A stretch of 52,976 nt of DNA from a phage. Under the pieces are notes generated by a model. The model was not told the origin of the DNA, did not search any database, and saw only the letters and a list, made by a program, of their open reading frames with translations. The position numbers and the translations under genes were made by a program. Of the stretch, positions 1,125 to 52,090 are shown piece by piece (positions within the stretch are counted from its first letter, which is position 1; each line of letters opens with the position of its first letter). The stretch lies in sequence record PZ049337.1. The stretch is one strand, 5' to 3'.

Positions 1125-1991
1125 TTAAAAGGGCATACCTGTGCCGCCAGCAGCACCACCTTCAGCTTCACGCTGTGCTTTCGCAGCAGCCTGTGCTTCC
1201 AGTTCAGCTTTCATAGCTGCATCAACTTCTTCATCAGAAGCCTGATTCGGTACAGCACCAGCATCGGCAGGTTTGCCACCTAACAGAGCAGACAGCTTGG
1301 TCTTGTAGAAATCAACACCGGAAGTAATACGGTTCTTGATTGCATACGGAGATTCGCCACCAGGCAGCTTGTTGAATACTTCCAGGTCTGGTTCAGACAT
1401 GTCGAAGAAGACAGTCGGGTTCACCAGAGCTTTGGCTTCTTTCTTCTCTTTGGACTTCATTGGAGAGAAGGTAGCAACCTTGTTCGCAACCTGACCAGCA
1501 TTCTTGCCGGACTGCTTGGTATATTGAACAATGCCAACAACCAGAGGTTCGGTCAACCAATCTGGTAGGTTCTTGGCAGGATGGCCCTGAATACCTTGTT
1601 CCAGGTTAGGTTTAACTTCCAGAGCATCAATCGCTTTAGCGAATTTGTAGATGTGGGAGTTGTCACCCATGAAGCCATCGGCATTGTAGGTAAACTCAAA
1701 GTCAAACCAACGTGGCTTGTCTTCAAGATTCTTCGCCATCATGATGCCGTCATCTTCGTCTGGGTCTTGAACCATGACCATTTTACCTTCACTGTCAACT
1801 TCTTTCATGTACTCGTCGAGCAGTTCGAAAGTCACCAGAAGTTTCAGGGACGGAGTAGGATATTTAGCAGAACCCGGCTGTAAGCCCAGGTCGATAATAC
1901 GGCAAACACGAGCAGGATAACCCCCCGCTTCCAGTAATGGTGCAGCAGAAGGAGTCTTGTTCGAGGCCAGGGTAGGAGCAGCAAATGCCAT
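1125..1991 (-). CDS. hypothetical protein, possible gp2.5-like ssDNA-binding/annealing protein
   Basis: 288 aa; ATG at 1991 with AGG Shine-Dalgarno; acidic/Ala-rich C-terminal tail ending GMPF; located between polymerase and exonuclease. Function is inferred from position and tail only. Confidence 0.4.
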   Translation of the reverse strand: MAFAAPTLASNKTPSAAPLLEAGGYPARVCRIIDLGLQPGSAKYPTPSLKLLVTFELLDEYMKEVDSEGKMVMVQDPDEDDGIMMAKNLEDKPRWFDFEFTYNADGFMGDNSHIYKFAKAIDALEVKPNLEQGIQGHPAKNLPDWLTEPLVVGIVQYTKQSGKNAGQVANKVATFSPMKSKEKKEAKALVNPTVFFDMSEPDLEVFNKLPGGESPYAIKNRITSGVDFYKTKLSALLGGKPADAGAVPNQASDEEVDAAMKAELEAQAAAKAQREAEGGAAGGTGMPF

Positions 1992-2022
1992 TTTGAGTAC
2001 CTTTAAATTTCAGTTTTGGGAG

Positions 2023-2295
2023 TTAATCAACTTGCAACATTGCAAGCTGGAAGTCATATCCAACTAATACTTCGGACAGCTCTTCAATTGAAGTCGTTGC
2101 CGAGATTAAAGTTTGGAGGTTTTTGAATGTCTCATCGTTAAATGCTTGAGACTGTGTGTCGGACGAATAGAATACTTTGTCCTTAATCTTTTCAAGGAAC
2201 GCCATTACGGCGTCTTTTGCGAGAACTTCGGAATCAGTAGCAAACATATGATGCTCTAACTCCTGCATATCGAAAATAGAATATACAATTTTCAT
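2023..2295 (-). CDS. hypothetical protein (90 aa)
   Basis: Minus-strand ORF packed between DNA polymerase and the 288-aa gene; no recognisable motif. Confidence 0.45.
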   Translation of the reverse strand: MKIVYSIFDMQELEHHMFATDSEVLAKDAVMAFLEKIKDKVFYSSDTQSQAFNDETFKNLQTLISATTSIEELSEVLVGYDFQLAMLQVD

Positions 2296-4250
2296 TAGTG
2301 AATCTCTGCGTAGTTATCACCGAACTGTACATCACATGCACAATCACGGTTAAGTTTAAGTTCTTTGTTGGTTCGGTCCATTGCCTCATTAAGTAAGTCT
2401 GTCCACAAATCACGGAAACCTTTCTTAACTTGGAGAATCAATTCATCATGGAATTGTCCAGACAGAAGCGGGTCACAGCCCCAACGTTCGTTACAAATTG
2501 CAATAATGTTATTACACCAAATATCAAACACATATGCGCCAGTACCCTGACACAATGTGGAGAAGCGGTCTTTCTCTGTACGCAATGAATACCAGAATTT
2601 GTTTACTGGATTCTGTTGCCACATCTGACCATCAACTGTGATAACTTTAGTGTTAGCAGCAATTTCTTTGATAGACCAGTTCAAGTCCCAATATGCTTTA
2701 TGCAGTCGTGCAGCAGTATTCTGGTCGCAACCAGCAGAACGGGCTACAGTTGGTACACCAGCACCATACTGACAAGCATAGTTTGTGGTCTTAAACATTG
2801 GACGTTGTTTACACTTCTTAATTCCGTCCTTATGGTCCTGAGATTCTTGTTCGGTGATAAATCCACCAATTACGCCGATTGCAAGGTGAGCATCATAGTC
2901 TGGTGCCAACTGCTTCTTAACGTATTCAGGGTCATACATCCACTGGAAGTGGTGCTTACAGCGGTCTTCCAGTGAACACAAGTCAGAGCCTAACTGCTCG
3001 TAGTCTTCGCGCCACGCTTCCAACATTGAACGAAGCTCTTCACCGCCAAATACGCGAATAGAAGGGAGGTTAACAAGTTCGCGGTGTTTAAGACGTAAAG
3101 TATTGGTAAGACCACCGCATCTTGCAGTAAGGAATCCATCTTCATCGACGTCGCGAAGGAAGCCATTAACAACAGACAGACGGTGTTTATACACGCCCAT
3201 ACCAATAAGGTGTTGAATACCGGAGTCGGGGTTTCTTTCTGCCAGCTTATGCAAGCTCGGACAGATTTCAGGATTTCCATCTTCATCCTTCACAGTGATT
3301 TGCGGAATCTGGCGAGTTTCACCTGTTTCCTTGTTACGGTCAAACTTAAAGGTTTCCGGTTCCCAACCTAGGCTGAACAACCAATCTTTGATTTGAACAT
3401 GTGAACCAGCATTAGGCTTCTTATAACCTTTAAGAACCTTGATAGCCAGGTCTGGGTCTTTCCAGTCCAAACCGTTTGCATCACAAATAGCCTTCCACTT
3501 AATTCCAGTGGCAGACAGTTGCCCGTTCATTTTGTGGCATTTAGTTGGACGGGTTTTGATAACATATTCCGGAACACGCGGCATTGATGCTTCCAATGCG
3601 TCCGTCTTCTCTTTAATCATTGGTTCCAGCTTGGCCTTAAACGCCAATGCCTTCTCAATGTTCAGCTTCCAGCGAGTACGTTGTTGAATAACTTGTTGAC
3701 GAGCTTTTGTCATCAGGTATTCAACGAAGCGTTTAACTTCGCTAGGAGATTTATAAATCTTCAAGAGTTGGATGTATTGCTGTTCCCACAGCTTCAACTG
3801 AATCTTGCAGTCTTCCATCACACGATGGTTGTACTCTTCTTGAGTTTGATTTTCCCAATCTTCAATGACTGGTTTTGGCACACCAAACTCTTCGCCGTAA
3901 CCTTCTAAGCCGTGCTTAACACGACGAGGTTGCAGATACCAACTGATAAACAAAGTATCAATTAGTGTACATTTTGAAACGTCGTAGCCCAGGAACCTCA
4001 GTGCCTCAAAGTCGAAGGTTGCGCCATTGTGAGTACAAAATGTTGGACCAGTATCTAGGAAGTCCTGAATAGCCTTTCTTTCAGTCCATTCAAACACCTT
4101 CTCTTCACGAGAAACAACATCAATGATTCCCATGTTGTGCAAGCGCGGTGCTTCTTGCTTCTTCATTTGGTCCAGTAAGCCAGTGGTTTCAATATCCATA
4201 GCATACATATTGGAGTAAGGATACAACATTTCAGGCTCCGAACTATTCAA
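2295..4250 (-). CDS. DNA polymerase, family A, with 3'-5' exonuclease domain
   Basis: Exo I motif DIETTGL near N-terminus; Pol A motif B RPMFKTTNYACQYG (R-x3-K-x7-YG); motif C FHDEL. Confidence 0.8.
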   Translation of the reverse strand: MNSSEPEMLYPYSNMYAMDIETTGLLDQMKKQEAPRLHNMGIIDVVSREEKVFEWTERKAIQDFLDTGPTFCTHNGATFDFEALRFLGYDVSKCTLIDTLFISWYLQPRRVKHGLEGYGEEFGVPKPVIEDWENQTQEEYNHRVMEDCKIQLKLWEQQYIQLLKIYKSPSEVKRFVEYLMTKARQQVIQQRTRWKLNIEKALAFKAKLEPMIKEKTDALEASMPRVPEYVIKTRPTKCHKMNGQLSATGIKWKAICDANGLDWKDPDLAIKVLKGYKKPNAGSHVQIKDWLFSLGWEPETFKFDRNKETGETRQIPQITVKDEDGNPEICPSLHKLAERNPDSGIQHLIGMGVYKHRLSVVNGFLRDVDEDGFLTARCGGLTNTLRLKHRELVNLPSIRVFGGEELRSMLEAWREDYEQLGSDLCSLEDRCKHHFQWMYDPEYVKKQLAPDYDAHLAIGVIGGFITEQESQDHKDGIKKCKQRPMFKTTNYACQYGAGVPTVARSAGCDQNTAARLHKAYWDLNWSIKEIAANTKVITVDGQMWQQNPVNKFWYSLRTEKDRFSTLCQGTGAYVFDIWCNNIIAICNERWGCDPLLSGQFHDELILQVKKGFRDLWTDLLNEAMDRTNKELKLNRDCACDVQFGDNYAEIH

Positions 4251-4632
4251 TAGGTGTATTATTCATATGCCACAGGGTGTGACATTCTTTGCAAAGCCAA
4301 CGAACAACCTTTGGCTTATTGTAGTCGTCGTGATGTGCCTCAAGTTTCTTATCTTGGCAACATCCCATACAACGTGCAGGAGGAATCATCCCACGTACCG
4401 CGACTCTGGCAGCACGCTTCTTAGGATTTAACTCTGCATGTTTCTTAGACCTTGCCTTATTGAGTTCCCGCTCTCGTCCGATATTACGAACAGGCTTCTC
4501 TGGTAATGGTGCAGATTTGTACTCTGCGCGATACTTCAATTTCTTGCAAAGCTTACACCAAGATGAACTCTTGTGAAAGTTTGCTTCATCTTGAGGTACT
4601 TTGCACTTAGAACAAATTTTCATCATTTCCAA
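4243..4632 (-). CDS. HNH endonuclease with N-terminal zinc-finger
   Basis: CSKCK...CKLCK zinc knuckles and EAHHDDYNKPKVVRWLCKECHTLWH; overlaps the DNA polymerase start by 8 nt; paralog of 655..1083. Confidence 0.6.
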   Translation of the reverse strand: MEMMKICSKCKVPQDEANFHKSSSWCKLCKKLKYRAEYKSAPLPEKPVRNIGRERELNKARSKKHAELNPKKRAARVAVRGMIPPARCMGCCQDKKLEAHHDDYNKPKVVRWLCKECHTLWHMNNTPIE

Positions 4633-4687
4633 CTATTGTAAAGTGAGGTCTACGCTGGTGGGCGAACCATGCAGCGTAGAAGCTCTG

Positions 4688-6454
4688 TTATTGATGCGGA
4701 CCGTTCTTCTTAGTAAGTTGAACAATCTCTTTGGTTTCGAACAAGGAGTCGTCCCAAGAACGTTGAATGATTCGACCAGAGTCTGTGTCATAGTACGTCT
4801 TGAAGCCCTCTGTTTTACCACTCTTACGAGCTTTGATGGAACGAATAATAGAACAGTTTGGGTCTACTGCCTGACTATTACGCTCAAAACCAAACATACC
4901 ATGAGAATATTTAGCAGCAGCACGAGAGCCAGTAAAGTCTGACTTCTTAATACGTCCACCATCTTCATGAGGTCGCTGACCTTTTGCCACAGGGTTAAGG
5001 TGTGACAAGATATTAACATGGAACTGATATTGGTCTGCCAGCTTGGTAATGTCTGCATACAGCTTACCTAAGAAGTCGTTCTTCTCTGAGGCAGAAATCC
5101 CTTCTGATAAGTAGGTTAAGTTATCAAGAACAAACATATCAATGTCTGGACCAATCTGACGAAGAATCGTCTTTAACCCATCCCAAGTTTCATAAGGGTC
5201 TTCTCCAGCTTGCTTGCGGTCCCAAATCTCCATGTTACGAAGCATCTTCGCAGCAGTTTGACGGAACTTAGCTTCATCATATCGAGGGTCTTCACGAGTA
5301 AACGCGGGTTCCCAATATGGCAAGTTGTCGTTAAGGCCAGCCATTCGGCGTAATGTTTCCGCAGGAGTTTCCTCCATGTATGCAGTAAACACTCCCCAAT
5401 CATGCTGAACAATGTTGTGATGCACAATCTGTCGAGACAGTGTAGTCTTACCACCACCTTCTGCACCACCGATTGAGATAACTTCGGCACGACGTTGACC
5501 GAACATTAAGTCAGTCAGTTTGGGCCAAGGGTAGTCCACACCCTGTTCAACTTCGTCATCAAGCTCTTCCATAAGAAGTTCTTTGTTGACAAGTGCTGTA
5601 GGTAGAGGACGGGCAGCACGGAACACAACAGCAGATTGAGTAGCTTTAAGCAAGCCACGTTTCAAACAGTCGTTGGCATCGTTGGCAGGAAGTGTGGCAA
5701 TCATTGCACCAGGCAACAATCGACACGCTTCTTTTGCAGCTTTACGACCAGGTTCATCATCATCAAATACGATAACAACCTGCTCCCAACGTTGCTTAAT
5801 TTCTTCTGCAACTGGTGACAAACATTTGTGTACGGAATCACTTCCATCACTCAAACTAATTACAGCAAAATCCAAATCTTCATATGCACCACCACGGTTC
5901 ATAGTCTTGAGGATTTGACGCAATGCGATACAGTCTTCTTCACCTTCAGTGATGAACAATGTCTTACCGCCAATTGCTTTTGCAGCCAACCAATTGTAGG
6001 GTTCGTTGCCTTGAGTATCACCAACAGACCACATAACTTTCTTGTTCAGAAGTTTAATCTTCCAACGAACAAGTTTACCATTTTTGGTGTAGCCATGCGC
6101 CAAAGCATTTGGAGTCTTGCCATCAAACTCTGAATACAGAAGTCGGACACCAGCAGCTTTCCAAAATTCTGGTTCAATGCTGCGATGGTCTAAATCAAAC
6201 GGAGGACACGAGGTTACTTCGTCAATTTCTTCCTGAATTTCTTCTGGAGTCTTGACCTTAATTTCCGGAATATTCTCCGGATTATTGCCGTACGGATTCG
6301 GAACGAGAACGCCACATGCAAAGCAGTAACCAGAGAAGTTCTTATTACCAGCTTCATCGACATTCAACCAAACCTGTAAAGACTTGCCAGATGTGGATTT
6401 ACAGTCTGGTACATCGTGCTTAATCTTGGCAACACATTGCTTAACGTTCATCAT
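4688..6454 (-). CDS. bifunctional DNA primase/helicase (T7 gp4-like)
   Basis: N-terminal Cys4 zinc ribbon (CKSTSG...CFACG), central TOPRIM-like acidic region, Walker A GGAEGGGKTT of DnaB-type helicase. Confidence 0.8.
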   Translation of the reverse strand: MMNVKQCVAKIKHDVPDCKSTSGKSLQVWLNVDEAGNKNFSGYCFACGVLVPNPYGNNPENIPEIKVKTPEEIQEEIDEVTSCPPFDLDHRSIEPEFWKAAGVRLLYSEFDGKTPNALAHGYTKNGKLVRWKIKLLNKKVMWSVGDTQGNEPYNWLAAKAIGGKTLFITEGEEDCIALRQILKTMNRGGAYEDLDFAVISLSDGSDSVHKCLSPVAEEIKQRWEQVVIVFDDDEPGRKAAKEACRLLPGAMIATLPANDANDCLKRGLLKATQSAVVFRAARPLPTALVNKELLMEELDDEVEQGVDYPWPKLTDLMFGQRRAEVISIGGAEGGGKTTLSRQIVHHNIVQHDWGVFTAYMEETPAETLRRMAGLNDNLPYWEPAFTREDPRYDEAKFRQTAAKMLRNMEIWDRKQAGEDPYETWDGLKTILRQIGPDIDMFVLDNLTYLSEGISASEKNDFLGKLYADITKLADQYQFHVNILSHLNPVAKGQRPHEDGGRIKKSDFTGSRAAAKYSHGMFGFERNSQAVDPNCSIIRSIKARKSGKTEGFKTYYDTDSGRIIQRSWDDSLFETKEIVQLTKKNGPHQ

Positions 6455-7105
6455 TTATTCCTGTTTAATGAGTGCCTCCCAGCAAACAGGAAACAACTCT
6501 GACATAATTTTATTAACTTCTTCTGCAAACAAACGTGCCTCATATTGGGCGTGCTCTGTAGAGCGTTGCTTGTACATATTAGCCCAGCCCAGTAAAGAGC
6601 CAGTCCAAATCCATGTAGTCATCATGGATTGTGGCAACACCATTCGGGCTTGCTCTGGAGCAATCCCCAAACCAATTAACGTTTCATACTCTGCAATGCA
6701 AGCCTTGTTGTGGATTTCCATGCGATAGTGAATATCGTCAGCAAAATCCTGTGGCAATGGTTGTGCAGTCTGAGTCATCAACTTTTCAGGACGACCAAAC
6801 ACCACATCAGGTACAAAGCATTCAATTTCGATTGCTTCGCCATCTTTGTAACGACGGCTAACTTCGTTCCAACGAAAGCCCACCTGGTGCTTACCCAGCT
6901 GCCGCGCAATAAAGATTGGTGCTGTACAACGTAGTGTTACATACGCGTGGGCAAAAGGTGTATTGTGCTTATGCTTTGCGAGAAATTCAATCAGCTTCTC
7001 GTCGCGCAATGTCATCTCGTGGGACTCTGCACCATAAGAGGCTCGTGCAGCATTAACAGTTGTGAGGTCGCTGCCCATGTGGTCAACGAGTGTTGCAGTA
7101 ATCAT
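6455..7105 (-). CDS. thyX: flavin-dependent thymidylate synthase ThyX-like
   Basis: 216 aa; MGSDLTTVNAARASY...HNTPFAHAYVTL...APIFIARQLGKHQVGFRWNEVSRRY aligns with the ThyX signature region (from memory), but canonical RHR is KHQ here. Confidence 0.65.
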   Translation of the reverse strand: MITATLVDHMGSDLTTVNAARASYGAESHEMTLRDEKLIEFLAKHKHNTPFAHAYVTLRCTAPIFIARQLGKHQVGFRWNEVSRRYKDGEAIEIECFVPDVVFGRPEKLMTQTAQPLPQDFADDIHYRMEIHNKACIAEYETLIGLGIAPEQARMVLPQSMMTTWIWTGSLLGWANMYKQRSTEHAQYEARLFAEEVNKIMSELFPVCWEALIKQE

Positions 7106-7161
7106 TTGCTCTCCGGTTCATATGGTGGGAGATTAATTAGCTCCGCACCATAACAATGGTA

Positions 7162-7383
7162 TTATTTTAATGACGCCTGTAAAGACGCATTTAGTACACA
7201 ACGCTTCTCATATTCGCGATGGTTGTACGTGTTTGTCAGTGCTTCCGCAGCTTCTATTGACAAGATTGCAAAACCACCAAAGGCATTGCGAACTTCTTCA
7301 ATATCCATGTGCAGGACTTCACTTGTGATTTGGTTGGCTATTACGGCCTTATAAATCTCTTCGGCAATTTCAGCAGTTTTCAT
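7162..7383 (-). CDS. hypothetical protein (73 aa)
   Basis: Minus-strand ORF directly upstream of thyX; no motif recognised. Confidence 0.4.
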   Translation of the reverse strand: MKTAEIAEEIYKAVIANQITSEVLHMDIEEVRNAFGGFAILSIEAAEALTNTYNHREYEKRCVLNASLQASLK

Positions 7384-7794
7384 GTTTCTCTCCAGTTAAA
7401 ATTTAAGTAAGTGCCCTGACGTGGACTATTACGAACATTACAATACATTGGCTTAAATGATGTTTCCACTGCGGCCAAGACACTTATTAAATTTGATTCG
7501 AACCGCCCAAGTGAATCAGCCTTGTTTATGGGGACCATCGGGGAAAAGTATAAACCCGCTTAATGCTCGCATCATGTTTGAACATTAAGAACCCTTGACT
7601 TGCATATTTCATGTGAATAGGGGCATAGTCTATGTTTAATAGCTAACACCGGACAAGGAGGATTCCAGCTTAGAGCCTGAACTCAGTTCCCGACACATCA
7701 CAATCAGCGCAACTAAGCCGTATCGCTACGGTATGCCAGACGCTAACTTGAGCCTTTTGTACAGAGGCATAACTGTTTGGAAAGTGGCGGGCAC

Positions 7795-12140: not shown

Positions 12141-12783
12141 AGGAACTCTCCAATTTTCGATTCAGTGTTTGTGACTTCTCTCTTCTCATCTTTTGGCCTC
12201 ATGAAACAGGCCACAGGGTTGCGAAAATAGCCCTATTTTAGGACTATAGCCAACCGTTTGTGTCAATTCTGGATAACTGCATTGGTGAAGGGTTACTCTC
12301 GTTAGGGTGCGATACGCTAATCACATGAGTGTCGTCGCCTTGCGGCTCAGGCGTGTCACAAAGGCTTTGCAACCCTTCCCAATACATTCACCCAAATCCC
12401 AGCGTTGGCGTAGCTGGTGGCTTGGTTTTGTGCGGATTATGCCACTCTAAGCCCTGTTTGTCCGACTTCCTCGGAGCACCAGCGGCTTGTGGCACAAACC
12501 TATTTTCGAATGACTAACATAAGCATGAGGCACAACCCTCTAATTATTCAGCCCTAACAGCTTGCTTATTTAGTACCAATTCATCCCAATACATCGACCT
12601 ATAACAAGTGAATAGCGTTTCTGCGAAGAAGTATTCTGGCCCTTTGGCCTATGTTAAAAGATAAGTGTATTTGATGGAAACATTCCATCGAAAATAACTT
12701 TGTAGAATGAGTCGAACATTCTCACACGTCTAGCGGCCGCAACGGTCTACCGAGTTACAAAGTTATTATCTGATGTTGTTTCT

Positions 12784-12800
12784 TCAATTCCAACTAATGT
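12784..12800 (-). promoter_or_regulatory. copy of recurring 17-nt motif (minus strand ACATTAGTTGGAATTGA)
   Basis: In ORF-free region 12150-13010. Confidence 0.3.
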
Positions 12801-12864
12801 TTCAGAATTATTCCAATATTCCAAACAAAAAGAATAATAAGAATAAATTAAAATAAATGAAGAA

Positions 12865-12900
12865 AGTGCTTGACACCCATTTGGCGATAAGTGTATAATG
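12865..12900 (+). promoter_or_regulatory. sigma70-type promoter on the plus (antisense) strand
   Basis: TTGACA (12870-12875), 18-nt spacer ending TG, TATAAT (12894-12899): consensus -35, extended -10; points opposite to all genes. Confidence 0.4.
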
Positions 12901-12924
12901 CATTTCTTCCCTAAGAGGTCAGAA

Positions 12925-12941
12925 TCAAATCCCACTAATGC
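12925..12941 (-). promoter_or_regulatory. copy of recurring motif, degenerate (minus strand GCATTAGTGGGATTTGA)
   Basis: Adjacent to hairpin 12949-12995. Confidence 0.25.
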
Positions 12942-13011
12942 TTCAGACGAAGTGCCGAAGGCCAATGCGAGTACAAAACCCGCTTGGCACTTCGAAGAAA
13001 CCCGCCTGGAA

Positions 13012-13248
13012 CTATAGTGCTTTCCAATCTGAATCAAACAGTTTCTTTGGTCTTGAATAAATTATCGAATTAATTCCCAAGAAAGTATGATTTCCATACT
13101 TCTTAACTTCCTGGTAAGCAAAACCATCTACCCAATCTCCGGAGTGGGTTTTAATCTTTGTAGCAAACAGGATTCGATAGTAGTGGCCGCGTGGCTGGTG
13201 GAAGAGTATATCTTCTGGCTTGATTGAGCTAATATTTAAATCACGCAT
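13012..13248 (-). CDS. hypothetical protein (78 aa)
   Basis: Minus-strand ORF, tightly packed early-gene block. Confidence 0.4.
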   Translation of the reverse strand: MRDLNISSIKPEDILFHQPRGHYYRILFATKIKTHSGDWVDGFAYQEVKKYGNHTFLGINSIIYSRPKKLFDSDWKAL

Positions 13249-21041: not shown

Positions 21042-22982
21042 TTATTGACAGAAGTAGTAAGCGTGTTCGCTCATCAGAAGCTCTTCAGTTACGATATTCT
21101 CATGATACATCTGAATGCCACCGAGTTGCTTAGACAGATTCTCGAATTGATTGTTGGTTACGAAGATTTCAACATATGCTGCACGAATAACTTCCATCAT
21201 ACGTGGAGCATCAGCTAAGCAGCAACGGAAACAGTCATGGATTGAAGTGAAACCACGAAGACCAGCTTCTTTAGCCTTAACTGCAACAGTACGAGCAACC
21301 AACGCGTCAATACCTTGAATGTAGTTAACAACGAAGGTACGCTTGAACTCTTCTTTAGTTGGGTTGGACTCACGAATGGTCCAAGGCTTATTCTCCTGAA
21401 TCTGACCAAAGATAACACGAGTTTGAGAGTCAACACGAATGCTGAATGCCTCACAGATTTCACGAGATGGGAAGCAAGGCTTCATTACAACCTGACCATC
21501 AGTGTGCTTATAGGTGATGTACTCTTTGTTGAGTTCAACACAACGAGCAAATGCAGCATCAGCAGCTTTCTCAATGAACATGTTAATCTTAGCACCCAAT
21601 GCGTTATGGATTGCTTCTACACACAGTTCAGCAAATGCCTCAGCTTTCTCCATAGGAATCTGAAGAGATGCAGTCATGTAGGAGATAAAGTCAGAAGAAC
21701 CAGTTAATGCTGCTTTACCACCACCATATTGGATAGCCATGTATGGAGTTTTGATAAACTTACGACCAGCTTTCGGATTCAAGAATTCATCCATAATTTC
21801 AGGAGATGGTTTCATTGAAGAACGGTCTAATAACTTTAACAGTTCACGAAGAGATAACTGGTATGGGTCAGATGCTTTAGTCTCAGAATCAACCAGACCT
21901 GTTGCACGAGCCATCTCCATGTTACCAGCAATGAATGCCAGATATTGAGTACCAGAACATTTAGCATCTAAGCCAAAGCCTACACGAGAATCACACTCAC
22001 CTGTAGTCTCAAACTTGAACCAATCCAGAGCCAGACGAACATAAGTGAATGGCTTAGAAGGACGTTCAGCTTTAGGCATGTTCATCATGCGAGCAAGTGA
22101 ACCAGCTGGATTCTGAGCAACATAGGTCAAACGTTTAGCACTGCACCATTCACCACCAGAAATATCTTCCAGCTCAGCCATGAACATGTTGTATGCAATG
22201 GTAGTAGAACCATCTTCGTTAAACTTCTTAACGATGTTCTCAACATTGTGAGAATACAGGCAACGAGCAAAGTCAGATGATTGTGGGTTAGGACCAGCAC
22301 ATGCTACATGATACAGGCGACCACGGTTATCAGCAAAGTAGTCAGAATAGAGTGTATCCTGAGTCATCATTGCTACAGCATTGTTCCAAACATGGAGTTC
22401 AGTCTGGATTGCTTCTGGCATCTGCAAACCACCGTAGGTACGTTGTTCAATCATGGACTGAATGATGCGAACCATTTCAGTCTCCACATGGTACTCAGTA
22501 TCTTGCAGGAATTCGATTGCAGCTTTCAGAGTCTTGGATGGCTTAACTTTGCCACCTTTAACGAAAGGCTTGCGACGAGATTCAGATGTAACACGCTCAG
22601 TGAATGGCACTGCTGTGTCTTTGGTTGTAACCAGCTCAACCCATGTATCAGTTTGTTGGAATGACTTGTCTTCGTTCATGGTGATGAAGCCAAAGTGTTT
22701 AGCTAAACCAATGAGGTTGATAGCTGGGTCAACATAGTGCATTGATTTCAAGTCGTTGTTATAGCGGTTGGCATCAGCAATAGAAGAAGAAGCCAGTTCA
22801 ACCATTGCAATGGCTGGGACAACATCATCACGAGTGAATGACGTCATCATCTTGAAGATTGCAAGAGCAGCAATAGCACAGGTCTGAGGCTGCATATAGT
22901 TCTGTTTCTCTTTGGCACGATATACCAGAGCCGTGATAGCAGGGACAACGGATTTGATAGTTTGAGTGGTGATAGTAGTCAT
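21042..22982 (-). CDS. single-subunit DNA-directed RNA polymerase (T7-like), N-terminally short (646 aa)
   Basis: DNRGRLYHV...NPQ matches T7 DWRGRVYAV...NPQ; CSGTQY versus T7 CSGIQH; motif B RKFIKTPYMAIQYG (R-x3-K-x3-M-x3-YG); motif C IHDCF; GGAG Shine-Dalgarno before ATG 22982. T7 comparisons are from memory. Confidence 0.8.
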   Translation of the reverse strand: MTTITTQTIKSVVPAITALVYRAKEKQNYMQPQTCAIAALAIFKMMTSFTRDDVVPAIAMVELASSSIADANRYNNDLKSMHYVDPAINLIGLAKHFGFITMNEDKSFQQTDTWVELVTTKDTAVPFTERVTSESRRKPFVKGGKVKPSKTLKAAIEFLQDTEYHVETEMVRIIQSMIEQRTYGGLQMPEAIQTELHVWNNAVAMMTQDTLYSDYFADNRGRLYHVACAGPNPQSSDFARCLYSHNVENIVKKFNEDGSTTIAYNMFMAELEDISGGEWCSAKRLTYVAQNPAGSLARMMNMPKAERPSKPFTYVRLALDWFKFETTGECDSRVGFGLDAKCSGTQYLAFIAGNMEMARATGLVDSETKASDPYQLSLRELLKLLDRSSMKPSPEIMDEFLNPKAGRKFIKTPYMAIQYGGGKAALTGSSDFISYMTASLQIPMEKAEAFAELCVEAIHNALGAKINMFIEKAADAAFARCVELNKEYITYKHTDGQVVMKPCFPSREICEAFSIRVDSQTRVIFGQIQENKPWTIRESNPTKEEFKRTFVVNYIQGIDALVARTVAVKAKEAGLRGFTSIHDCFRCCLADAPRMMEVIRAAYVEIFVTNNQFENLSKQLGGIQMYHENIVTEELLMSEHAYYFCQ

Positions 22983-50260: not shown

Positions 50261-50713
50261 CTAAACTCGTCCAGTTGAACCAAGCCCGCCTTCACCACGA
50301 ACAGTGGAATTTAAGTGGTCAACTTCAACGAAATGGTGTTGAGTAGCTTTACTAACTTGCACCTGACAAACACGTTCGCCTGGTTGAATAACAAAGGCTG
50401 TGTCCGAGTCGTTGTGCAGCTTAACCATAAGATTACCGCGATAGTCGGAATCCAGAATGCCTGTGCAGTTTGCAAGGCGAATACCAGACTTAAAGCCGTG
50501 ACCAGAACGGCTATGCACTTTGAGTTCGTATCCAATTGGTACTTCGAACTGGAGGCCAGTATCGACAACAACAGAAGAGCCGGGATTGATAACAACAGTG
50601 GTATCGGATACAGTACAAACATCAGCAGCAGCAGCGCCAGCTGTAGCGTACACAGGTAATTTCGCATTAGGATGTACTCGTTTAACTGCAACAACTTGGG
50701 TAATACAAGACAT
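50261..50713 (-). CDS. dut: dUTP diphosphatase
   Basis: All dUTPase motifs: YATAGAAAADV, HSRSGHG, GILDSDYRGNLMV, IQPGERVCQV, RGEGGLGSTGR. Confidence 0.85.
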   Translation of the reverse strand: MSCITQVVAVKRVHPNAKLPVYATAGAAAADVCTVSDTTVVINPGSSVVVDTGLQFEVPIGYELKVHSRSGHGFKSGIRLANCTGILDSDYRGNLMVKLHNDSDTAFVIQPGERVCQVQVSKATQHHFVEVDHLNSTVRGEGGLGSTGRV

Positions 50714-50715
50714 GA

Positions 50716-51342
50716 TTATTTCTCTACTTGATAAGTTACGCGTTCAATCCAGTTGAACACTTTAAATACGGAATCATCCACCTTACCATCAATTAGATGT
50801 TCATCCACTGTTACGCGGGTAGGTGTATTTGGGAGGTTGATGTATCTGCGAGAATCGCCCGTGAAATCAAAACCATCACGATGCAAACGCACAATGATGA
50901 CGAAATCATAAGCAGACTCAACGGCAACGACTTCATCGCCAAAACCGCCATCGGGATAAATGACATTAACAACGCCACCCATACGCCCCGCGAGTTCTTT
51001 AACACGAGCAGCTTCAACCTTACCGAAGTAGTCTTGTCCGTGGCGAGGTTTATACACGTCTTCGCTAACGTGAATAAGAGCCTGACGAGGTGTTCTGCCA
51101 CCAAGACCTGCAAGGGAGATAGAGTCTTTGAGGTCACGGTCCGAAGCGTAGTGAATAAACTTGTCCACATCAACTTGAAAGTGTTTGGCAGTATGCTCAT
51201 ACAGTGCATCCTTAAACTGGTGTTTAATGAATTTGCGCTTACCAAGAAAGTATGATTCCTCGGCAGCAACAATCTTATTTACGATGGTGTCTTTACCGCA
51301 GCCTGGAGGTCCGTTGAGAATAACAGCTAGTCGCTTAATCAA
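50716..51342 (-). CDS. P-loop nucleotide kinase, putative dNMP/dTMP kinase
   Basis: Walker A GPPGCGKDT near N-terminus; probable TTG start at 51342 with GAGGAA Shine-Dalgarno, overlapping the ligase stop. Confidence 0.5.
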   Translation of the reverse strand: MIKRLAVILNGPPGCGKDTIVNKIVAAEESYFLGKRKFIKHQFKDALYEHTAKHFQVDVDKFIHYASDRDLKDSISLAGLGGRTPRQALIHVSEDVYKPRHGQDYFGKVEAARVKELAGRMGGVVNVIYPDGGFGDEVVAVESAYDFVIIVRLHRDGFDFTGDSRRYINLPNTPTRVTVDEHLIDGKVDDSVFKVFNWIERVTYQVEK

Positions 51343-52090
51343 AACTTTCCTCACTTTTGTCTGCACGTAAACGAACGAGTGACGGGAACCGGAACTTACC
51401 AGCTTCTGTCTTCTCACGATATCGAACTTGCATAATCGAACCAATTAGCTCGTGGCGATGTTCCCACAACCACTTACGAATCAACGGGTTAGATTCTGGA
51501 ACGCCGTGGTCTGCCAGACAATCTTTCACCATTGAGCCAGCACTGCCGTAGTTCGAGGAAATAGAACCACACATACCTTTGAGAGCACCAGTACCTTCTT
51601 TCATACCAGTAATCTTCACATCGGCATATTTGTATGGTACAATCTTCCACCACTTACTTTTTGCATCACGGACAATGATACCTTCATGACCAAGCGCCAG
51701 ATATTTATCCATCAATGCCTTAAGGTTTTCATTGCTTGGGTCTTTGCACCAGCCGATGTACAAGCGTGGGTCAACAGCACCATCACTCAACTCATACACA
51801 TTGTCCTGGGTTAGAGGGATGCTTGGCGGGTCAATACGTCCGAGGATGCTAGAAGTCTCATTCCAACTATTACGGAATATCTCAGCATCTCTGAACTGTA
51901 AGTGGTCCAAATGAGGTAGGGGTTTGGAATTACGACTCCAGACACTACCTGATTTATTACGGATAGCTCGAATTCCGTCAATCTTGATGAAGAGTTCACA
52001 GCGCCCTTTGATTCGGCAGTCTGGGTCTTCCCAATCATGTGCGTGAGCCTTTGTGTATCTTGTACCATCATCGAGGAGCTTAATAGACAT
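51335..52090 (-). CDS. ATP-dependent ligase of the nucleotidyltransferase superfamily, probably a minimal DNA ligase
   Basis: 251 aa; motif I FIKIDGIRA (KxDGxR), motif IV-like EGIIVRD. Confidence 0.55.
   Translation of the reverse strand: MSIKLLDDGTRYTKAHAHDWEDPDCRIKGRCELFIKIDGIRAIRNKSGSVWSRNSKPLPHLDHLQFRDAEIFRNSWNETSSILGRIDPPSIPLTQDNVYELSDGAVDPRLYIGWCKDPSNENLKALMDKYLALGHEGIIVRDAKSKWWKIVPYKYADVKITGMKEGTGALKGMCGSISSNYGSAGSMVKDCLADHGVPESNPLIRKWLWEHRHELIGSIMQVRYREKTEAGKFRFPSLVRLRADKSEESFD

Follow-up and report, generated by a model that had tools for sequence, protein, structure and literature searches.

The thyX gene analyzed here lies on the minus strand of a stretch of phage DNA (6455..7105; the window, by which we mean the whole stretch analyzed, comprises 52,976 bp with 43.8% G+C), and it raises the question of whether a ThyX protein whose RHR triad reads KHQ still serves thymidylate synthesis or has taken on another role. 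Our collective results suggest that the gene very probably encodes a functional ThyX (EC 2.1.1.148), the dTMP synthase of a Carltongylesvirus-like myophage (Chaseviridae). We infer that the protein is enzymatically active and that the substitutions remodel only the surroundings of the FAD pyrophosphate and of the dUMP phosphate.

Gene and genome context

The coding sequence (216 aa plus stop) is delimited by the ORF list and supported by Pfam Thy1, TIGR02170, an AF2 model and Foldseek. Its TAA stop (6455-6457, minus strand) abuts the ATG (6452-6454, minus strand) of a T7 gp4-like DNA primase/helicase gene (4688..6454, minus strand), which was recognized from the ORF and from the orthologue annotation in phages Mangalitsa and EcoM1; this gene lies directly downstream of thyX in the same transcription direction, as part of the replication module. 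A likely ribosome-binding site, GGAGAG (7109..7114, minus strand), was read from the sequence 3 nt 5' of the thyX ATG, and in Mangalitsa such a site is annotated at the equivalent place.

Comparison of 1.6 kb around the gene (6000-7600 of the window) revealed 95% identity to Escherichia phages EcoM1 and TH53 and 88-90% identity to flopper and Mangalitsa (Chaseviridae, genus Carltongylesvirus), and in these phages the orthologue is annotated as thymidylate synthase or flavin-dependent thymidylate synthase. With respect to Mangalitsa (12446..13096 there), thyX is 79.5% identical in nucleotides and 82% in amino acids, the surrounding 1.6 kb being 88.6% identical overall, and the ThyX protein is 100% identical to that of TH53; the greater divergence of thyX relative to its surroundings, along with the identity to TH53, suggests that Chaseviridae have exchanged the gene in mosaic fashion. 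Located between the genes for primase/helicase and DNA polymerase, a 129-aa ORF (4243..4632, minus strand) with Cys clusters and a HHDDYNKP...CH..H motif looks like an HNH homing endonuclease, and it appears to be a mobile insertion, since Mangalitsa has a mere 66-bp gap at this place. In phage PYps3T, a homing endonuclease directly follows thyX instead.

The window also encodes a T7-like RNA polymerase (21042..22982), common to these myophages, as well as a dUTPase (50261..50713, minus strand; Pfam dUTPase, E 2.9e-23) and a dNMP kinase-like protein (50716..51444, minus strand; phrog_139, deoxynucleoside monophosphate kinase, E 3e-38). The start codon of the kinase-like ORF is uncertain (242 aa in the mechanical ORF vs 208 aa in the Mangalitsa orthologue), and its relatives are annotated as hypothetical. 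dUTPase makes dUMP, the substrate of ThyX, and the dNMP kinase could phosphorylate the dTMP product.

Family assignment and fold

The first-pass annotation had described the protein as a ThyX homologue over its length, and our searches bear this out. The Pfam profile Thy1 (PF02511) is matched from position 1 to 191 of 191 (E 1.4e-41; 142.8 bits vs a cutoff of 24.8), the thyX equivalog TIGR02170 gives 127.8 bits vs a cutoff of 87.9, and phmmer against the PDB aligned the query in full length to ThyX of T. maritima (Tm; 1kq4) with an E value of about 1e-27. The AF2 model, a monomer built from an alignment of 94 sequences, reached a pLDDT of 95.4 and a pTM of 0.90 (a single-sequence model with a pLDDT of 44 was discarded); ThyX is a homotetramer, each active site of which is built by three subunits. 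Compared by Foldseek with about 50 T. maritima ThyX chains, the model gave TM scores of 0.79-0.83; against T. maritima ThyX complexes, the TM score was 0.82, with 34% identity. Among the BFVD matches with E values of 0.001 or lower, those with a functional name are all viral ThyX proteins, the others being unnamed or uncharacterized. By profile thresholds and predicted fold, the ORF is assigned to the ThyX/Thy1 family (EC 2.1.1.148). Alignment with characterized ThyX enzymes and a structure model, both called for by the first-pass annotation, thus returned a ThyX fold in which RHR is not conserved.

The signature motif

According to the passage of PMC2826268 that cites Myllykallio (2002), RHRX7S is the signature motif of ThyX. 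The query keeps the His and the Ser of this motif, and has Lys (a conservative change) for the first Arg and Gln for the third. The triad K72-H73-Q74 (AAG CAC CAG; 6884..6892, minus strand) falls on Tm R78-H79-R80 in the same register in three independent alignments, i.e., phmmer to PDB 1kq4, MAFFT with 150 representatives and hmmalign to the family profile, which confirms that KHQ stands in place of RHR, as had been noticed at first pass. In the phmmer pairing, "arqlgKHQvgfrwnevSrRY" stands over "arqwfRHRia-syne lSgRY" of T. maritima, and a one-residue insertion makes the spacing K-H-Q-X8-S instead of X7; the X8 spacing is also seen in canonical RHR enzymes of actinophages.

The first-pass annotation had further pointed to an Arg shifted downstream of the triad. 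This residue, query R78 in the string FRWNEVSRRY (codon 6872..6874, minus strand), is indeed present four residues after Q74, but the compensation it seemed to offer is not conserved: FRW occurs in 9 of 120 close homologues, most of which have FSW (Ser), and in the wider variant clade the position is occupied by V, S, T or A. Judged from these alignments, query R78 is a lineage-specific residue and no conserved replacement, and as a compensating Arg it was rejected.

Conservation of the active site and selection

All the residues expected to bind dUMP and folate or to take part in catalysis are present: H47, Q69, E81, S83, R85 and Y86 of the query correspond to Tm H53, Q75, E86, S88, R90 and Y91, and E151, R154 and R181 to Tm E144, R147 and R174. 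At these nine positions, neither the RHR clade nor the variant clade shows appreciable variation. The codon of R154 (Tm R147, M. tuberculosis (Mtb) R172), the residue of the dUMP phosphate salt bridge, lies at 6644..6646 (minus strand), with conservation in 149/150 representatives. R181 (Tm R174, Mtb R199; codon 6563..6565, minus strand), to which recognition of the uracil ring is ascribed, is Arg in 150/150 representatives, in 252/255 variant-clade sequences (the other three have gaps) and in 166/166 RHR-clade sequences.

The premise that the RHR arginines normally bind the dUMP phosphate, from which the first-pass annotation had reasoned, proved only partly right. In M. tuberculosis ThyX, R87 and R172 form the salt bridges to this phosphate and the RHR triad takes no part in them, its first Arg lining the ribose 3'-OH pocket (PMC12004180); R172 corresponds to the conserved R154, and the triad mainly contacts FAD. 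Nevertheless, Basta et al. count Tm R78 and R80 as residues with hydrogen bonds to dUMP (PMC3498832), and to this extent the premise stands.

Pairwise dN/dS among five Chaseviridae thyX genes ranges from 0.09 to 0.21, i.e., thyX is under purifying selection. The loss of two residues of the textbook signature motif could be taken as a mark of an inactive relic, or of a ThyX-fold protein with a non-enzymatic role, but we consider this extremely improbable in view of the dN/dS values, the near-invariance of the catalytic residues over hundreds of diverged sequences, the confident AF2 model, and the inteins found within the motif region of some members, an insertion site typical of essential active sites.

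Residues that change along with the motif

Covariation was analyzed in 421 distinct ThyX sequences, comprising cluster representatives and IMG/VR loci seeded with six ThyX types. Arg at both Tm R80 and Tm R165, with a residue other than Arg at the position of Tm G89, was found in 157 of them; the opposite state, in which R80 and R165 are both replaced and the G89 position is Arg, in 231; and other combinations in 33. The three positions are closely associated. R80 and R165 are lost together in 231+22 of the 421 sequences and both kept in 157+3. A separate small group outside the main clade (KHV/KHI, SGRY, Q or L at 165) exhibits the same joint loss, which argues that the two positions are functionally coupled. 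In the query, the position of Tm R165 (Mtb R190), an Arg that contacts the FAD phosphates, is occupied by L172 (codon 6590..6592, minus strand), and this position is non-Arg throughout the variant clade. The equivalence of Tm R165 and Mtb R190 is drawn from an ungapped phmmer alignment of query residues 144-206 to residues 162-224 of the 3gwc chain, in which L172 pairs with R190, R154 with R172 and R181 with R199.

The gained Arg lies within S83-R84-R85-Y86 (6848..6859, minus strand), where S83, R85 and Y86 correspond to Tm S88, R90 and Y91 and R84 takes the position of Tm G89; Arg is found here in 139/150 representatives (SRRY vs SGRY). Given the covariation, and since residue 89 of PBCV-1 ThyX (Gln89) can reach or occupy the dUMP phosphate pocket (PMC3498832), R84, which is situated between the catalytic Ser and Arg, is plausibly the compensating residue.

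In the known structures, Mtb S71, Mtb R190 and the residues of the RHR triad form hydrogen bonds to the AMP phosphate, the FMN phosphate and the ribityl of FAD, the first Arg of the triad touching the flavin and the dUMP nucleoside as well (PMC6514825). Devoid of R80 and R165, the subfamily has hence lost both Arg clamps on the FAD phosphates together. Among the FAD-contact residues of the query, H73 (Tm H79) and T49 (Tm T55, Mtb S71) are unchanged, K72 is a conservative substitution, and Q74 and L172 replace arginines; the surroundings of the ADP moiety (Tm E58, N163, R165, N169, L173 and H178) are variable within the subfamily. With two FAD-contacting arginines missing, the affinity for FAD or the kinetics could differ. 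It is therefore conceivable, and we would give it a minor but real share of our confidence, that the same dUMP to dTMP chemistry proceeds with the cofactor handled differently, FAD being bound more loosely or in another pose, or FMN being used instead, and with Arg84 taking over part of the phosphate binding. This would be a refinement of the explanation that we prefer, rather than a true alternative to it. The coupled loss of R80 and R165, its repetition in the KHV/KHI group, the variability around the ADP moiety and the reach of position 89 in PBCV-1 all point this way; yet the FAD contacts His73 and Thr49 are retained, and the association comes mostly from one clade, so that it represents few independent events.

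Distribution of KHQ-type ThyX

Of the 120 database proteins nearest to the query (identity of 68% or more, Chaseviridae), 119 carry KHQ and one KHS. Searched exhaustively with HMMER, a set of 1.84 billion cluster representatives yielded 7,051 relatives, and the best 150 of these, i.e., the nearest 50%-identity cluster representatives (39-59% identity), include 72 sequences with KHQ, 24 with KHK, 9 with KHT and 3 with RHR. When 115 representatives (<55% identity) were placed in an NJ tree with midpoint rooting, 96/99 of those without Arg as the third motif residue fell into one 102-tip clade, within which viral and bacterial sequences are interleaved. Cultured phages with KHQ comprise Chaseviridae, Gordonclarkvirinae coliphages (Bas89), Aeromonas phage LAh_8 and the T5-like Vibrio phage Thalassa, while KHK is seen in the Rheinheimera Barba phages and RHR in actinophages and Thermus phage TMA. 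Searching 185,579 species genomes with a degenerate DNA pattern for KHQ..G..WNE.SRRY gave 45 loci, and 45/45 encode the same ThyX type.

Some of these genes are chromosomal. In two Spirochaetia assemblies, a KHQ-type thyX is situated on the chromosome in the conserved order SDR-thyX-pyrD, which points to a pyrimidine-metabolism neighborhood; two Chloroflexota MAGs share the order E2 acyltransferase-thyX-MFS, also with the KHQ type; and in Poribacteria and Nitrospinota, KHQ-type thyX lies among metabolic genes. The chromosomal KHQ-type ThyX passes the TIGR02170 cutoff. The locus in Phenylobacterium is prophage-like. The view that the subfamily is exclusive to phages was rejected on account of the chromosomal contexts with conserved synteny. 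On the sequences surveyed, KHQ is what a large subfamily of ThyX normally carries, with members in many phages and on some bacterial chromosomes. Since the deviation is common to a whole clade, including bacterial chromosomal thyX, a strict RHRX7S motif is too narrow as a definition of the family. The suggestion that substrate specificity or activity could be altered is thus not supported: the KHQ state prevails throughout a large clade with bacterial chromosomal members, the remaining residues for dUMP, folate and catalysis are intact, purifying selection acts on the gene, and the equivalog threshold is passed.

A number of further observations concern individual members. In both Spirochaetia assemblies, thyX lies divergently beside pyrD; on chromosome OZ251568.1 (3001..6164 of the locus), there is a pyrF/pyrE fusion in addition, and citrate synthase nearby. 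Several metagenomic ThyX sequences (P0134, P0264 and other long representatives) are interrupted by inteins within the ThyX motif, at the point that directly follows KHQxGF, and some of these inteins have HNH-like endonuclease domains. On S. aureus plasmid NZ_CP113048.1 (22..729 of the locus), thyX is located directly downstream of the trimethoprim-resistance gene dfrE; its product has K-Y-V and SRRY and a motif loop extended by a long insertion, and resembles ThyX of Bacillus phage Gemini.

DNA modification

A departure from RHR might also indicate neofunctionalization, in which the enzyme would release 5-hydroxymethyl-dUMP, or accept dCMP or UMP as a substrate, and so supply a non-canonical pyrimidine nucleotide as the first step of DNA modification. 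Besides the motif itself, the phage-encoded dNMP kinase beside the dUTPase fits such a role, as some modified-base phages likewise encode their own dNMP kinase. Known hypermodification pathways based on 5-hmdUMP employ a ThyA-fold dUMP hydroxymethylase along with kinases and transferases, and the resulting DNA is refractory to restriction; the enzyme studied here differs from them in having the ThyX fold, not the ThyA fold. Gordonclarkvirinae, which carry the nearest KHQ ThyX outside Chaseviridae (about 50% identity), withstand restriction-modification systems to a remarkable degree although they have no known modification pathway, and the BASEL-2 study speculates about covalent modification (PMC11990801); this resistance may be counted in favor of a modification role. 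The same study proposes dU-DNA (PMC11990801) and leaves the thymidylate synthase gene unmentioned; a KHQ-type thyX would fit that idea poorly.

Most of the evidence speaks against a modification role. Conservation extends to Y86, to the uracil-recognizing R181 and to the residues for folate and catalysis, and the same subfamily is chromosomal in bacteria, where it adjoins pyrimidine biosynthesis genes. DNA of Yersinia phage PYps23T, the ThyX of which is 79% identical to the query and likewise has KHQ, gave MbiI and NdeI patterns as predicted in silico, terminal repeats excepted (PMC8762354), which speaks against bulky modification of thymine in this phage family and is still compatible with a small one. 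Scanning of seven larger unannotated non-structural ORFs of the window against Pfam and PHROGs revealed no hypermodification enzyme (glycosyltransferase, aminoacyl-transferase or other). Moreover, relatives annotate an anti-restriction protein, the counterpart of which is weakly ArdA-like here, and this fits restrictable DNA. Finally, the homologue in PDB 4p5a, presumably PolB with its changed substrate, retains RHR. We therefore consider neofunctionalization very unlikely for the phage enzyme, and the window itself holds nothing that points to a modification pathway. There is a small possibility that some members of the KHQ clade, e.g., in Gordonclarkvirinae, feed such a pathway.

Proposed role and significance

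Returning to the reading that we prefer, the gene would act as follows. Placed in the replication module, upstream of the primase/helicase and DNA polymerase genes, ThyX most likely raises the supply of dTMP during infection. dUMP, derived in part from the phage dUTPase, would be methylated with CH2-H4folate and reduced flavin, NAD(P)H regenerating the flavin, and the resulting dTMP would be phosphorylated by the phage dNMP kinase or by host kinases; dUTPase, ThyX and dNMP kinase could together form a plain route from dUTP via dUMP and dTMP to dTDP. In the subfamily to which the enzyme belongs, Tm R165 (Mtb R190) is replaced jointly with the third Arg of RHR, the first Arg is changed to Lys, and an Arg is gained beside the catalytic Ser (S-R-R-Y). 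Our best reading of the alignments is that the protein belongs to a widespread subfamily, sparsely described in the literature searched, with a remodeled FAD-pyrophosphate pocket (KHQ, non-Arg at R165, SRRY). That this clade might constitute a distinct class of ThyX, with loose or exchangeable FAD, with FMN, or with a changed balance of oxidase and synthase activities, which in some phages feeds pyrimidine modification, is a doubtful proposition.

For the phage itself, these findings are of little consequence, since thyX is here a nucleotide-supply enzyme, the relatives of which are already annotated as thymidylate synthase. They matter more for the family: RHRX7S does not describe a large branch of ThyX that extends over phages of Gram-negative hosts, several bacterial phyla and many marine metagenome sequences, and motif-based filters, e.g., the one in PMC2826268, can under-count or mis-flag KHQ-type genes. 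ThyX is also an antibacterial drug target, the FAD and dUMP pockets being the targeted sites, and the structure and kinetics of a KHQ-type enzyme would reveal how far the ThyX pocket can vary.

Comparison with known ThyX enzymes

In the literature searched, we found no assay of a KHQ-type ThyX and no paper that mentions ThyX together with KHQ or KHK, and the PDB relatives of the query are all of the RHR type, with no KHQ-type structure among them. The Borrelia plasmid ThyX, which reportedly complements thyA, was considered as a characterized KHQ-type example and rejected, as it is of the RHR type.

The fold and the full-length alignment are shared with T. maritima ThyX (TM0449; 1kq4, 1o26), of which H53, Q75, E86, S88, R90, Y91, E144, R147, R174 and H178 are kept in the query, whereas R78 is replaced by K, R80 by Q, R165 by L, E58 by A and G89 by R, with one insertion in the motif (X8 vs X7). 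The best PDB match of the subfamily profile is 6j61 (E 1.5e-62 over the whole domain), which we take to be Thy1 of Thermus thermophilus, but that protein differs in having canonical RHR, SGRY, X7 spacing and an extra C-terminal region (270 aa). A more distant member of the ThyX fold family is 4p5a/4p5b (E 1.4e-16 to the query), presumably PolB, the UMP C5-methylase of polyoxin biosynthesis, a known ThyX homologue with a changed substrate. The change of substrate in PolB is attributed to loop insertions, and since 4p5a retains RHR, the triad did not set specificity in this case; evidence of a PolB-like substrate change was not found in the query.

Counterparts of the KHQ type are known from other phage families. 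ThyX proteins of Gordonclarkvirinae (e.g., KarlSchell_Bas89), LAh_8 and Thalassa share KHQ...WNE.S(R/M)RY and a non-Arg residue at the R165 position with the query at 44-51% identity, and their genes are annotated as thymidylate synthase within DNA replication or nucleotide metabolism modules. In Bas89 (1517..6645 of the locus), thyX is accompanied by genes for a dCTP deaminase, a thioredoxin-domain protein and a nucleotidyltransferase, whereas the phage studied here has dUTPase and dNMP kinase. The chromosomal KHQ-type genes (Spirochaetia, Chloroflexota, Poribacteria and Nitrospinota MAGs) likewise encode KHQ, SRRY and a non-Arg residue at 172, with 39-46% identity to the query, but they reside in a housekeeping context (pyrD, E2 acyltransferase or IspH), in contrast to the phage replication module that surrounds thyX here.
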